The notes: a model not told the origin generated them from the sequence alone. Numbered from the stretch's first letter, positions 6,990 through 47,736 are shown. The stretch is 64,000 bases of DNA from an uncultured candidatus Porisulfidus sp. (GCA_965215125.1 OZ244052.1:1856001-1920000); one strand, 5' to 3'. Program-made: numbers and translations.

Positions 6990-7111
6990 ATTCCCCTCCT
7001 ATGGAGGGGTGGCAGGCTTCGCCTGACGGGGTGGTTTATTCCCCTCCTGTGGAGGGGCGGCAGGTGCAACAGAACCCCCGATTGAACCAGTTGAGTAAAT
7101 GGCAGTTCTAT
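6990..7111 (+). repeat. Family A copy, then a second half-copy joined to a degenerate family B palindrome
   Basis: ATTCCCCTCCTATGGAGGGGTGGCAGGCTTCGCCTGACGGGGTGGTT, then ATTCCCCTCCTGTGGAGGGGCGGCAGGTGCA followed by ACAGAACCCCCGATTGAACCAGT...GTTCTAT. Confidence 0.85.
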
Positions 7112-7149
7112 TTCCAATAACTCCTTTATATACCTTATAATCTATTAGC

Positions 7150-8070
7150 ATGGACATAGAACCTGTTATCAACTATATGCTCAACTTGCAGAACCGAATT
7201 TGCGACACGCTAGGTCGGTTTGAAAAAATCGCATGTTTTAACGAGGATCCCTGGCAAAGCAAGCTGGGCAAGGGTCGCACGCATATACTCGCCGACGGAC
7301 AAGTCTTGGAAAGGGCAGGGGTTAATTTCTCTTATGTGCACGGCGACCGATTGCCGCCTGCGGCGTTGTCGGTAGCACGCACACACTCTGGCGAAGGTGC
7401 TTTTGAAGCAACCGGGATATCCGTGGTTGTTCATCCGCGCAACCCGCATGTGCCTACCGTGCATTGCAACCTGCGCTTCTTCAAGCTGGATGAAAAGAAA
7501 AAAGAACCGAAATGGTGGTTCGGCGGTGGCTACGATCTAACCCCGTATTATCCGTACGAGGAAGATGTTATTGCATGGCATCGGGCAGCTCACTCGGCAT
7601 GTGCACCGTTCGGAGACGATGTTTATCCACGCTATAAAAAATGGTGCGACGAATATTTTTATATCAAGCACCGCAAAGAGACCCGCGGTGTAGGCGGTTT
7701 GTTTTTTGACGACTTGAGCGAGTGGGGCTTTGATAAGAGTTTTGATTTTGTACGCGCAATAGGCGATAGTTTTGCTACAATTTATCCTCTAATCGTTGAG
7801 CGACGTTATAAAACCCGCTATAGCGAGAGGCAGCGGGAGTTTCAGCTTTATAGACGCGGACGCTATGTGGAATTCAATTTGGTTTATGACCGCGGCACAC
7901 TGTTCGGTCTACAATCCGGCGGGCGTGTGGAGTCTATATTGATGTCGCTGCCGCCGCAGGTCCGCTGGAATTACGATTGGCAACCCGAGGCACACAGCGA
8001 GGAAGAAGATTTGTACTTGAATTACTTAAAACCCCGAGATTGGCTCGGTGTGGAACCTAAAACGCAATGA
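7150..8070 (+). CDS. hemF: Oxygen-dependent coproporphyrinogen III oxidase
   Basis: [32 protein letters not shown] and [25 protein letters not shown]. Confidence 0.98.
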
Positions 8071-9068
8071 CGCAACAATATCCTAAAACCAGAATGAGAC
8101 GCAAACGCCGTTGGGACTTCAGCCGACGGCTTTGCCGTGAAACCGTGTTGACTACGGACGACTTGATTTATCCCATCTTTATATGCGAAGGAGAAAATAC
8201 CTCGCAACCTATCGCAGCGATGCCGGGCATCAATCGCCTTTCCATAGATCTGCTGGTTAAGGAAGTGGAGCTTCTACACAAGCTGGGTATTCCTGCGATT
8301 GCATTATTCCCGGTCGTGCCGACGGAGCGCAAAGACACCGAGGCATCCGAGGCATGGAACCCCGAAGGGCTGATGCAGCGTGCGATACGCACCCTGAAAG
8401 CACATATCCCCGAGATGGGCATCATCAGCGATGTCGCACTAGACCCGTTTACGCAAGACGGGCAAGACGGCTTGACCGAAGACGGCTATGTACTCAACGA
8501 CGAGACTATAAGCGTATTATGCAAACAGGCGCTATCGCATGCCGAAGCGGGTGCCGACATCGTCGCACCGTCGGATATGATGGACGGGCGCATCGGCGCA
8601 ATCCGAGAAATATTGGAAACAAACGGCTATGTCGATACGATGATATTGGCGTATTCCGCTAAATATGCCTCGGCTTTTTACGGACCTTTCAGAGCGGCTG
8701 TAGGTTCGGCGTCAAACCTCGGGTCAGCCGACAAAAAAACCTACCAGATGGATCCTGCCAATTCCGACGAAGCCTTAGCCGAAGTGCAACTTGACTTGCA
8801 GGAAGGTGCCGATATCGTCATGGTGAAGCCGGCATTGCCGTACCTCGATGTTATCAGACGGGTCAAAGACCGCTTTGAGGTTCCGTTATTCGCCTATCAG
8901 GTGAGTGGTGAATACGCCATGCTGAAATCAACATCTACGCAAGATTATCTATCCGAAAGCGATTGTGTGATGGAAAGTTTGTATGCGATCAAGCGCGCCG
9001 GTGCCGATGCAATCTTAAGTTATTACGCTAAAACAGTTGCGATAACGCTCGCCGGCGCGCATGAATGA
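8067..9068 (+). CDS. hemB: Porphobilinogen synthase (ALA dehydratase), Asp-rich Zn-independent type
   Basis: [41 protein letters not shown] and AYQVSGEY. Confidence 0.98.
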
Positions 9069-9891
9069 ACAACCGGCTAAAGATTTATACGGGCTGATAG
9101 GTTCACCCGTCAAACATAGTATCTCACCTAAAGTTCACAACTATTTCGCCGAACAAACGCAACAAGCGATACGCTACGAATTGGTTGAATCGTCGCCCGA
9201 CGACTTTGCCGGAACCCTACATCGTTTTATAAAAAGAGGTGCAAAAGGAGCGAATATCACCTTGCCTTTCAAGGAACAGGCGCGCCGCATTGCAAAAACC
9301 GTCAGTCCGCGAGCGCGTATTGCCGACGCCGCCAACACACTCTTTATCCATAACGAGCAAGTACTATACGCCGATAATACCGACGGCATCGGCTTCGTCA
9401 AAGATTTATCGGAACACTGCGGCGTTGAACTTGCCGGCAAAACAATCTTGATAATCGGTGCCGGCGGTGCTGCCCGAGGCATCATCGCACCTTTGTTGCA
9501 AGCGCAAGTATCAAAATTGGCTCTCACCAATCGCAGTATGGAACGTGCGCACAAACTCGCTCGAGAATTTGAAGGTATAGGCGATCTAGAACTATACACC
9601 TTTGCCGAACTACAAAACAGACACTTTGACGGCATCGTCAATGCAACTTCGGCGAGCCTCTACGACGAAATGCCGGCTATACCGCAATCCGTGCAAGCAC
9701 AATGGGGCTACGATTTAGTCTATCGCAAAAAGCCGACCGTATTTATGCAACAGCTCGGCGATTGGGGTGTGGACTCGGTATTCGACGGTTTGGGCATGCT
9801 TGTCGCACAGGCAGCCGAATCATTTTATCTGTGGCGCGGCGTTGCCCCGCAAATCACCCCTGTGATTGCCATCCTGCGCCAACATCTTTAG
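9061..9891 (+). CDS. aroE: Shikimate dehydrogenase
   Basis: [31 protein letters not shown] and DGLGML..QAA. Confidence 0.97.
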
Positions 9892-9899
9892 AGGCAGTT

Positions 9900-10035
9900 A
9901 TTCCCCTCCTGTGGAGGGGTGGCCTATGCATTTTGCAATGCATGCGTTTAGCAGTCATGTTGAGGTTCTGAACAAAGTCACGCCGATTGACCTACTGGTT
10001 CAATCGGCGGTTCTATTCAGCCTGACGGGGTGGTT
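9900..10035 (+). repeat. Composite repeat: family A split by a ~95 bp long-form family B element
   Basis: A left half ATTCCCCTCCTGTGGAGGGGTGG, then an insert ending CGCCGATTGACCTACTGGTTCAATCGGCGGTTCTAT, then A right half CAGCCTGACGGGGTGGTT. The insert is almost identical to 20590-20681. Confidence 0.88.
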
Positions 10036-10130
10036 GCAGCGTATCTGCACCATTCCAATCGCTACCCACCGATATAGCAAGTGATGCGACTTTCTGCTAC
10101 GATAGCCGTTTATACCGAACAGGAGAAGCA

Positions 10131-10564
10131 ATGAAAGAAGTTATAGATAAGGAATTATTCGGATGGGTCCCGCTCTACGAAGGGATAGCCGACCCTTTTA
10201 GAGGTCGTCGGAGAAGAGCCATCGACGGAACCGAAGCCAAAGAAAGATGAGTAGACATCTTTTTGGGGGAAAGTTTATTAAGAAGCTACGCGCTTCTAAT
10301 CCTAGACTTAAACCGGACGAGAGCCGGACCGACAAGGCGACTATTCGTAACTGATCTAACGGCTATTACAGCTGGGAGCTTCTCTCCGATGGCGATAGCT
10401 ACGAGGAATATCTTAAAAAGGGCGGAAGGGATAAGGATCTTCTTTGGGACTATAACCACGGCTTTATAGCTTTAAGCGATACGAGAGAAGAAGCTTTAGC
10501 TAAAGCTCTTTCGCCGACGCAAGCCGAAGCGGAAGCCGAATATAAGCCCGATGATCTGTCCGGT
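10131..10564 (+). pseudogene. Disrupted N-terminal (specificity) region of mcrB
   Basis: AGGAG RBS and ATG at 10131 (MKEVIDKELFGWVPLYEGIAD). Reaching the mcrB frame needs at least one frameshift, probably two. In that frame, MSRHLFGGK...TIRN is followed by an in-frame TGA at 10352, then SNGYYSWELL... reads straight into the AAA+ ORF. Confidence 0.65.
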
Positions 10565-46856: not shown

Positions 46857-46988
46857 CTACTCAAAGCTATTTTTTGACGCTTCATAGGTCAAGCAACGCC
46901 AGCTACCTCCATGTCCAGTTGCGGTATTCCCGGCTGCCATAATGTTTAACGAAGCATTTACATCCGCATTGTCATCGTGTCCGCAATC
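46857..46988 (-). pseudogene. Orphan 3' fragment of an IS200/IS605- or IS607-type tnpB with its overlapping omega-RNA/right-end region
   Basis: The minus strand translates to (D)CGHDDNADVNASLNIMAAG..., the end of the zinc ribbon plus the RuvC-III motif. It continues GGACATGGAGGTAGC...ACCTATGAAGCGTCAA. Confidence 0.75.
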
Positions 46989-46989
46989 A

Positions 46990-47205
46990 TCATAGAAACT
47001 TGATCATCAACCCGACACCTGCAAGGGTTATTCCTACAGCTCCATATATCTGCTTGATCAGTCGTGCTTCTAGTTTTGCTATGGTCGTTTCTAAATCTTT
47101 ATGAGTTACTAAATTATCGGTTTTGCGCAATTTGGTAGCAACCTCTAAAACCTCCTCATTAGAGGCACCGGGGATTTTTTCTAATAACGATATCACTGTA
47201 TTCAT
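46990..47205 (-). CDS. Small DUF1640/mempromCC-like membrane-anchored coiled-coil protein (paralog 1)
   Basis: NLVTHKDL neck-like motif, short coil, C-terminal TM and an AGGAG RBS. Confidence 0.72.
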   Translation of the reverse strand: MNTVISLLEKIPGASNEEVLEVATKLRKTDNLVTHKDLETTIAKLEARLIKQIYGAVGITLAGVGLMIKFL

Positions 47206-47220
47206 TGTTTTCTCCTATAG

Positions 47221-47328
47221 ATTATATTTGAATCGATACCCTAGGGCAAATCAGTGCATAGGGTATCCTTTTTCGAAATATGTAGCTTTACTAAATTCAA
47301 TGAGTGGTAGCAAATATCCGACGAACGG
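47221..47328 (-). promoter_or_regulatory. LytTR/AlgR-like box pair plus sigma70 promoter
   Basis: On the minus strand, CCGTTCGTC (47328-47320), CCACTCATT 21 bp later, and TTGCCC-17 bp-TATAAT (47249-47221). Confidence 0.7.
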
Positions 47329-47375
47329 CACCTTGGGCTGTAGGAACAGACTATTTCCCTACTGTGGAGGGATGT

Positions 47376-47667
47376 GAGGCTGTTGAAAAAGTGCGGACAT
47401 CGCACAAATCCAACCGCTGTACGCCACATAATTATCCAAACCACCTGTAGGGGCAGGACAAAGCCGCCGATTGAGCCGGTAGGTCAATCGGCAATTCTAA
47501 TGTCTGCCCTTAAGTACCGTTCTGCACAGCCGTAACCGCTTGCGCCGTATGGTTTTGGTTTCCATAAATTGGATGAATGAATGTATAAATCGTGCAGGCG
47601 CAACGCGTTACGGGCGGACATATAAGTCCGCCCCTACCACTCTATGAAATACTTTTTCAACAGCCCC
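47376..47667. mobile_element. MITE-like non-autonomous element (~290 bp) containing a REP doublet
   Basis: Terminal inverted repeats G(A/G)GGCTGTTGAAAAAGT at 47376-47392 and 47651-47667; no transposase ORF inside. Confidence 0.75.
47447..47637. repeat. Inverted pair of GTAG-type REP hairpins (REPIN-like); the left one carries family B in its loop
   Basis: GTAGGGGCAGGAC[B]ATGTCTGCCCT at 47447-47510, and GTAGGGGCGGACTTATATGTCCGCCCG on the minus strand at 47611-47637. Confidence 0.75.
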
Positions 47668-47673
47668 ACGACA

Positions 47674-47736
47674 CAACCACCCCGTCAGGCTGAATAGAAC
47701 CGTCGATTGAACCGGTAGGTCAATCGGCGGTTTTAT
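47674..47736 (-). repeat. Family A right half joined to a full family B palindrome
   Basis: CAACCACCCCGTCAGGCTGA followed by ATAGAACCGTCGATTGAACCGGTAGGTCAATCGGCGGTTTTAT. Confidence 0.82.

Follow-up and report, generated by a model that had tools for sequence, protein, structure and literature searches.

The 64,000-nucleotide stretch of DNA analysed here (termed the window; bases 1856001-1920000 of the single 2,220,706-bp contig, 46% G+C, of an uncultured sponge symbiont, Candidatus Porisulfidus sp., GCA_965215125.1, OZ244052.1, coded G000) raises the question of how a palindromic repeat of about 40 bp, termed here family B, comes to sit again and again inside the loops of other hairpin repeats. 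An initial annotation, made from the sequence alone, regarded B as a tiny non-autonomous element that targets hairpin loops by structure rather than by sequence and that is, in effect, a parasite of other repeats. The explanation favoured here, taken as a whole, is given a slightly better than even chance of being correct: B would be the core hairpin of a genus-restricted, gene-less repeat unit that resembles repetitive extragenic palindromes (REPs); it would have been nested at the apices of other hairpins in a few founding events; and the composites thus formed would then have been multiplied whole and spread by copying between paralogous repeats.

The B core consists of a stem, CGCCGATTGA, and a 9-nt loop, RCCRGTAGG. 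Although the core is indeed palindromic, as originally described, information content places it within a larger and asymmetric unit, in which a 5' box, ATAGAAC, is followed by the hairpin (10-bp stem) and then by a 3' tail, TGACATTGTGCAGAACCT (also written TGACATTGTGCAGAAC); a second small hairpin often lengthens this tail, giving a unit of about 100 nt (termed long-B). With up to two mismatches allowed, the 14-nt half-site GAACCGCCGATTGA occurs 12 times in the window versus 0.48 expected, a number reached in 0 of 100 shuffles, and a search with the arms finds 165 full palindromes with a 9-nt loop genome-wide. Perfect hairpins having a stem of at least 8 bp and the 9-nt GTAG loop NNNNGTAGN number 128, as compared with 0, 0 and 1 for three control loops; five stem families are represented among the GTAG-loop hairpins (CCGATTGA, 98; CCGATTAA, 9; CCACTTGT, 9; CCGTTTGT, 8; TTCCTTGT, 3). 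Within a set of 156 B-family copies, compensatory double changes occur at 8 of the 10 stem pairs. The search that gave this set required GTAG in the loop; in the arm-defined set, which is free of that demand, the loop GTAG carries 1.6-1.8 bits per position. Between orthologues or paralogues the loop can also be inverted with respect to the flanking sequence, with stem and junction unchanged (window 47701-47729 versus its counterpart in the sister genome G003; G000:C1 468620 and 2007049). Tandem 38-bp B units occur as well: five at G000:C1:1337629-1337810, and three in G003 where G000 has one (window 47694).

B is almost solely intergenic and usually lies just past a stop codon, in sense orientation. 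All but four of the copies (152/156) fall outside open reading frames (ORFs) of at least 150 aa, which make up 85% of the genome, and a long ORF ends at the box side of 30 copies versus the tail side of 5 (p = 2.2e-5). Often the stop codon is supplied by B itself, as the TAG of the box, the TGA of the arm or the TAG of the loop. The hairpin has no trailing T-run, and at the gathering score no Rfam family matches B, the sole match across the 64-kb window being a tRNA at 15545-15632 on the minus strand.

At least 73 of the 156 copies are flanked by both arms of a host hairpin, which places them at its apex and supports the original view of B as gene-less and largely housed in other repeats; about five stereotyped composites, or founding junctions, are involved. 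Two hosts recur throughout, namely family A, a double hairpin, and family C, a hairpin with a GTAG tag at its foot (36 of 40 perfect C hairpins). When 170 GTAG-loop hairpins were sorted by their flanks, four closed composite types were obtained. The type termed T2 (40 copies of 124-125 nt) consists of the left A through the loop of hairpin 2, long-B, and an altered right A. T1 (17 copies by flank sorting and 19 by a second method, every one of 134 nt) has the same A as its host, with long-B in the other orientation and with 7 nt of the host lost. In T3 (16 copies) B stands at the apex of the C hairpin, in two forms distinguished by the side of C's GTAG tag, and the fourth type comprises B units within the loops of other B hairpins. 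Left and right contexts, when tabulated, are strongly tied, cross-class mosaics numbering just 1-3 each. Such fixed junctions imply that founding events were few and that the composites were copied afterwards. Hence, the outcome that the initial annotation named as fatal to its reading--that all A-B junctions descend from one or two ancestral composites that were then copied--is largely what is observed, with T1 (19 copies), T2 (40 copies) and, for B in C, two more composites. Mean pairwise identity within G000 is 93.7% among T1 copies and 86-87% among T2 copies, so that neither burst can be very recent. The copies of form T3a share a long left flank and sit in the first C hairpin of a unit of about 290 nt whose inverted GGCTGTTGAAAAAG ends are those of an IS1182-type element.

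Nesting at an apex is general in this genome and reciprocal between families: C occurs in B, C in A, B in B, and insertion sequences (IS) of the IS110 family in C, at least six types of hairpin serving as hosts. A units were located by both of their outer ends (n = 135); 102 of them are uninterrupted (37-45 nt), 19 are T1, in eight the hairpin-1 loop holds C (which itself houses B in one instance), two are T2, and the remaining few are long spacings of unrelated DNA. No interruption of A outside its two loops was found among these 135 units. C lies inside the B loop, beside the loop GTAG, in six clean cases, one of which is B in C in B. Among sister genomes, G004 has long-B in a different hairpin, GGGAGGGC, next to a gene for a REP-associated tyrosine transposase (RAYT), and G003 has a T1 that carries a further B unit in its B loop (A > long-B > B).

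Are loops, then, the target? Clustering of the 25 nt upstream of the box sorts the 156 copies into 66 contexts, with sizes of 42, 18, 8, 7, 6, 4, 4 and 4, five pairs and 53 singletons. Loops provide at least 5 of the 66 contexts, compared with about 0.75% of intergenic bases (binomial p = 1.4e-4), where the loop share was estimated by hand, the loops of the A, B and C families adding up to about 2.5 kb in about 326 kb of non-ORF sequence. The loop enrichment that the initial annotation proposed to look for across genomic B copies is present with each composite counted once; the copies found in loops belong to a few fixed composites that were then copied. Likewise, apices are where nesting occurs, as had been claimed, but 53 of the 66 left contexts are single and mostly non-hairpin, so that loops are not obligatory targets. 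Targeting by structure rather than by sequence is possible, and hairpin apices may well be preferred points of breakage or insertion.

Related genomes bear on how the composites spread. With up to two mismatches, the B pattern occurs 139, 239, 226 and 200 times in G000, G001, G003 and G004, respectively, and not at all in G002, which belongs to the same genus, or in any of 36 further genomes from the family and order. The pattern of empty A is distributed alike, with 100, 235, 92 and 121 occurrences in these four genomes and 0 elsewhere among the 19 genomes searched. Among the matches listed in a scan of one genome per species, the 17-nt box-plus-arm sequence is repeated only in Candidatus Porisulfidus sp. 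or Candidatus Oxydemutatoraceae bacterium, other records having single hits that presumably reflect chance. Gene identity to G000 is 93-96% for G003, the closest relative, 83-91% for G001 and G004, and 72-80% for G002.

Comparison of filled with empty sites yields two clean orthologous pairs, with unique flanks aligned on both sides, in which A is empty in G000 and filled as T1 in G003. In both pairs GGGGTGGC-AGGCGYA-GCCTGAC in G000 corresponds to GGGGTGGC, a 98-nt long-B and GCCTGAC in G003--that is, 7 nt are exchanged for 98 nt with the standard T1 junctions--and one of the pairs also agrees between the two genomes in the variable loop of hairpin 1. When checked for target-site duplication, the two pairs are replacements, unlike simple insertions. 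Because a replacement that repeats the standard T1 junctions is unexpected of ordinary transposition, copying from another T1 (or a dedicated site-specific exchange) is favoured; thus filled and empty sites do exist, as the initial annotation anticipated, but they fit copying between A paralogues better than structure-guided insertion, and conversion rather than transposition would be what spreads the fillings. G000 and G003 have T1 in common at two further sites and T2 at two. Elsewhere their spacers differ by whole clusters, often with B kept at one junction while the neighbouring module has changed, and once with the loop inverted and the unit triplicated, all of which points to frequent recombination at or within hairpins. 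By methods that are not identical for the two genomes, G003 has at least 32 T1 among the matches listed (90-99% identity), 83 T3-type junctions and 10 T2 junctions, and G000 has 19 T1, 16-21 T3 and 24-40 T2 (24 being exact T2 junctions). No clean filled/empty pair for C was found among the T3 and T2 loci of G003 compared with G000. Window 16611-16897 was considered as an empty site in G001 and G004 and was dropped, the alignment being ambiguous and remnants possibly being present.

These observations suggest the following course of events. B would enter the loops of other hairpin repeats at their apices in a small number of founding events; the composites would multiply as whole units by riding their hosts, namely the A double hairpin and the miniature element of about 290 nt that has IS1182-type ends and carries C; and fillings would spread into resident empty hosts through copying between paralogous repeats, either by ectopic gene conversion through the A arms or by an equivalent site-specific exchange. 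Several considerations weigh against this proposal. The count of independent events rests on our own reading and on simple clustering of flanks, and the searches, except that for A (which used both outer ends), demanded intact host arms, so that insertions into stems elsewhere could be missed. Of the G003 loci compared with G000 (20 T1, 20 T3 and 9 T2), most are too rearranged to read. G001 and G004 hold unrelated repeats at both polymorphic sites, which leaves the direction of change unset, loss in G000 being as possible as gain in G003. Moreover, conversion would have to rely on short homology arms of about 24 and 18 nt, lengths that are marginal for RecA-type recombination, and a site-specific recombinase that always made the same replacement would leave an identical pattern.

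The window itself illustrates most of these arrangements. B is present at all eight places that the initial annotation had listed, as confirmed by reading the sequence. An empty A occupies 6990..7035 on the plus strand (hairpin 1, CCCCTCC-TAT-GGAGGGG; hairpin 2, GGCAGGC-TTC-GCCTGAC) and belongs to a genome-wide set of 98 A units that run uninterrupted for 45 nt. It is followed at 7038..7111 (+) by a left half A joined to a decayed B (7076-7105), whose arms are now unpaired, through a T2-type junction, GGCAGGTGCA|ACAGAAC, at 7059-7075; this arrangement is common to G003 and absent here in G001 and G004. A T1 composite lies at 9900..10033 (+) and comprises the left A, a 98-nt reversed long-B (hairpin 9981-10009) and the right A; it is found at the same site in G003, and its fold as single-stranded DNA has z = -5.1. 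A T2 composite, at 16675..16800 (-), comprises the left A through the loop of hairpin 2, long-B (hairpin 16734-16762) and an altered right A (GCCTTTCCATGGGGTGG), with fold z = -4.3. The junctions of B with A in two orientations were found as reported: in the one, ...GTTCTAT|TCAGCCTGAC at 10010-10026 and its reverse complement, GTCAGGCTGA|ATAGAAC, at 47684-47700; in the other, ...GTTCTAT|TGCGCCTGCC at 16763-16779 and the junction with the decayed copy given above.

At two places the initial description holds as to the presence of B, but the arrangement is more elaborate. The copies at 20648-20676 and 20734-20762 (genome positions 1876648 and 1876734) are really two tandem long-B units on a left half A without a right half (20567..20769, -). 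The copy at 37452-37480, which has a D-type tail, is a B unit lying in the loop of another, decayed B (37387..37499, -; outer arms 37387-37396 and 37481-37499; fold z = -3.3). The ~290-nt unit is represented at 47377..47667 (+), with inverted ends GGCTGTTGAAAAAG and CTTTTTCAACAGCC that also flank an IS1182-type element and with two family C GTAG hairpins; G003 lacks this unit at the orthologous site. At the apex of its first C hairpin (GTAG-GGGCAGG...GTCTGCCC) B (hairpin 47465-47493) forms a T3a composite, 47447..47509 (+), that folds as one extended stem-loop (z = -5.4) and is a member of the 8-copy left-context cluster; here B had been reported within the loop of a GTAG-REP, and GGGCAGGAC and ATGTCTGCCC do bracket it at 47451-47509. 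In the last of the eight, at 47676..47736 (+), the right A arm in reverse complement is joined to a B of the short form, palindromic throughout (ATAGAAC...GTTTTAT; hairpin 47701-47729), and A lacks its other half; in G003 three tandem copies of B, with the loop inverted, occupy the same right junction. A ninth unit, absent from the initial annotation, accompanies an empty A (49575-49620) within 49575..49680 (-); it is a decayed B-type unit of another stem family (unit 49645-49680; hairpin 49645-49673) and is adjacent to A, not nested in it. At window 46850-47360, G000 carries about 850 bp that have no counterpart in G003; the small gene that follows, from 47740 onward, has its 3' part repeated there in diverged form.

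Which enzyme might act on B? None is encoded in the window, as the initial annotation had already stated. In G000, which is 99% complete, PF01797 has 0 matches and tblastn finds no RAYT/Y1 gene, nor was a RAYT found in G003; B composites have therefore turned over in RAYT-free lineages. Five RAYT genes occur in G004 and one in G001 (131-198 aa, with HIH and YIKYNP motifs), and inverted C or C' hairpins bearing the GTAG tag flank them in the classical REPtron arrangement, B being only a guest in one flank. The proposed search for B flanking a RAYT thus gave none in five genomes; C, which brackets the RAYT in the sister genomes, is the RAYT repeat, and B is not. At two G004 loci (L021 and L022) the RAYT lies between long C arrays, spaced about 141 and 202 bp, that are GTAG-oriented on one side and CTAC-oriented on the other. 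Upstream of the RAYT ORF of G001 (L018), the loop of a C' hairpin contains about 45 nt matching IS110 type a/b at its left end, which may be a solo end left behind.

Elements of the IS110 family, about 1.35 kb in length, reside inside C loops of G000 (GGGCGGAC|IS|GTCCGCCCCTAC) at no fewer than five sites, the outer flanks of which all differ (G000:C1 around 990178, 603344, 452619, 909820 and 1998849; loci L001-L007). A second IS110 type starts directly after the GTAG (once CTAG) that precedes C, as GTAG|ATAGTATGGATGACC (G000:C1 550356, 934245, 1114717 and 1427468); one copy of it adjoins the end of a first-type element. B and IS110 type a/b are both found in C loops, but at different loop positions, and when both resident types were compared by eye, their ends (AGATATATTAAACC...CATCATGCAA and ATAGTATGGATGACC...GAACTTAG) were unlike those of the B unit beyond ATAG. 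Other candidates were tried and set aside. Spacings between inverted B arms show no gene-sized peak that would indicate an autonomous element bounded by them. The IS1182-type element has no flanking B, its inverted ends belonging to a different module (the one that bounds the C-carrying unit at 47377-47667). DUF559, as a partner of the host A, occurs solely as a domain (G000:C1:1086808-1087053) inside a 1753-aa frame, and not as a small gene beside A. Integron attC sites have cores of the form RYYYAAC/GTTRRRY, of which ATAGAAC...GTTCTAT fits only the AAC/GTT triplets; no integrase search was made. A search for TnpB gave six matches.

The only gene family that is tied to B encodes Rpn-type PD-(D/E)XK nucleases. 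When 80 sister-genome loci were searched for ORFs with B alongside, a protein of 322-334 aa emerged that matches PF12784 (E = 1.7e-30; 106.9 bits versus a cut-off of 27.4), B-linked ORFs matching TIGR01784, the Rpn family, at 119.9 and 109 bits (cut-off 52.1). G000 has 12 such genes in four subfamilies (41-66% identity between subfamilies), and all 12 end in the B box or left arm, versus 102 of 1457 other long ORFs (7%; Fisher p = 2.7e-14); at some of these ends other repeats are nested in the former B loop. When judged by eye, 23 of the 27 Rpn gene ends listed in the four B-bearing genomes are at B, as against 0 of 2 in the B-free G002. Among 41 relatives Rpn genes were found only in this genus, as 12, 16, 13 and 6 copies in the genomes with B and 2 in that without it. 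Eight of them stand in a row at G001:C1:1416532-1428641, with a spacing of about 1.7 kb, and in each gene examined the stop codon lies within the B left arm. Under a strict test, in which the right arm of B had to be intact and no more than 50 nt from the stop codon, 1 of 12 Rpn genes qualifies as compared with 56 of 1457 others (p = 0.38). At 24 Rpn-like ORFs of other Gammaproteobacteria, picked by position, no excess of 3' hairpins is seen (1/24 versus 4/44 neighbours). No paper on Rpn genes with flanking hairpin repeats was among those listed in the literature searches, supplements lying outside their scope.

By analogy with REP and RAYT, B and the Rpn nucleases could conceivably form a partnership, in which the nuclease would recognise or nick the GTAG-loop hairpin, both where its own gene ends and at solo copies, and breaks at the apex would be repaired from other repeat copies; this would explain both the spread of B and its recursive nesting, but we consider it doubtful. 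The same doubt applies to the corresponding account of B's origin, in which B is the 3'-end hairpin of Rpn cassettes that are built like REPtrons with a PD-(D/E)XK nuclease in place of a RAYT, the 150-240 or so solo copies per genome being miniature derivatives and the nuclease driving recombination by acting on the hairpin. The ending of every G000 Rpn gene in B, the family-level matches, the contrast with G002, the stop codons that B supplies and the confinement of these genes to the genus all speak for such cassettes, and E. coli Rpn proteins promote RecA-independent recombination (PMC5350276). Yet the strict test is null, the paralogues and tandem duplicates (seven genes in G001) are not independent, 7% of ordinary ORFs likewise end in B, and the Rpn-like ORFs of other Gammaproteobacteria lack the hairpin excess; rpn genes, moreover, are described as having no identifiable terminal or flanking repeats, and are argued not to be transposases, in PMC10400941.

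Somewhat less improbable, though still unlikely, is that B is an actively transposing miniature element, inserted de novo into whatever host sequence by an enzyme that acts in trans and reads extruded or single-stranded loops by their shape. Invariant junctions within each composite, including the odd 7-nt loss of T1 and the change of GAC to TTCCAT in T2, are difficult to reconcile with this, as are the predominance of single, mostly non-hairpin contexts, the dependence of loop position on the host (3' edge in A, 5' edge in C), the lack of an autonomous element bounded by B arms and the turnover seen in G000 and G003, both without RAYT. What it does account for is the diversity of host sequences (hairpin 2 of A and the C hairpin, each occupied in both orientations, for C with respect to the GTAG tag, as well as GGGAGGGC in G004 and B) and a loop enrichment that persists even when each composite is counted once; REPs inside other palindromes are in print (PMC3733652), and five insertion-sequence families are reported to target REPs, one of them at the symmetry axis of the hairpin (PMC1525189). 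Least probable of the three alternatives is that B is a host-useful stem-loop of 3' untranslated regions (a stabiliser, a terminator or a protein-binding site) under selection, with nesting as a harmless by-product of repeat-rich spacers. Such a role would accord with the sense bias at gene ends (30 versus 5), with stem covariation and a conserved loop, with nearly exclusive intergenic placement and with the 96-99% identity of G003 T1 copies to the window T1, where flanking genes are 93-96% identical; but the hairpin is not followed by a T-run, roughly half of the copies lie within other repeats and may face either way relative to the host, tandem arrays occur, turnover from one sister genome to another is rapid, and B in the window has no Rfam match. 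The preferred explanation remains that of few founding nestings followed by whole-composite multiplication and inter-paralogue copying.

The spread of REP-like repeats is still poorly understood, and recursive nesting at apices appears in PMC3733652 as a passing mention. In the genus examined here, four sister genomes that are closed or nearly so carry 140-240 copies apiece and one carries none; there are clean empty and filled sites, and turnover in lineages without RAYT. This set makes copying between paralogues versus transposition testable. The Rpn link is the lead most worth testing: the role of this family is debated (transposase, recombination promoter or phage-defence toxin), and the link, if causal, would supply the missing natural DNA substrate of a widespread 'recombination-promoting' nuclease family.

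Compared with known systems, B most invites a comparison with REPs, bacterial interspersed mosaic elements (BIMEs) and REP doublets forming hairpins (REPINs) together with their RAYTs: like them, B is a short, abundant (>100 copies), intergenic hairpin with stem covariation and a conserved GTAG, and it forms mosaics and lies at gene 3' ends. RAYTs cut at CT or CA beside the hairpin, with GTAG as guide (PMC8266576). However, the GTAG of B is in the loop rather than at the foot of the stem, where the 5' flank is ATAGAAC, its conserved flanks are asymmetric, and no cognate RAYT is flanked by B in five genomes, whereas true REPtrons do occur in the sister genomes, as a 178-aa RAYT between inverted GTAG-tagged C hairpins. 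On both tag position and cognate RAYT, B thus stands outside the REP-RAYT family. REP-targeting insertion sequences (IS1397, ISKpn1, ISPsy8; of the IS110 family, ISPa11, ISPpu9/10 and IS621) insert into REP hairpins, one at the symmetry axis (PMC1525189), and the gene-less ssr9 module is mobilised by the transposase of the IS110-family ISPpu9 (PMC12288879). The resident IS110 elements, in C loops or right after the C tag GTAG, resemble these. B differs in several respects: its ends, as judged by eye, are not shared with the resident IS110 types, and it is a gene-less unit of about 45-100 nt with many non-REP sites.

Bacterial miniature inverted-repeat transposable elements (Correia/NEMIS and Nezha, listed in PMC3733652) are, like B, gene-less, repeated and mutually nested, and the unit with IS1182-type inverted ends is a host of this kind; B differs in that no autonomous element shares its ends and in that these make up a simple inverted repeat only where the unit is short and palindromic. 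The B-linked genes pass the cut-offs of the Rpn (YhgA-like) nuclease families and form tandem arrays like the multi-copy arrays described for rpn (PMC10400941), but unlike the genes described there, each G000 copy terminates in a hairpin with 150-240 occurrences. A close precedent for the nesting comes from Anabaena variabilis, Thermomicrobium roseum and Halothiobacillus neapolitanus, where GTAG/CGTC REPs regularly occupy the middle of longer palindromes (Di Nocera et al. 2013, PMC3733652); this is touched on there in passing, with a single host palindrome in each species. In the present genus the hairpins nest reciprocally and recursively, and orthologous empty and filled sites are available as well. 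The B system is thus a REP/BIME-like mosaic variant, in which the new features are reciprocal and recursive nesting among several families, orthologous evidence of empty and filled hosts, spread without RAYT, and a tie to Rpn genes.

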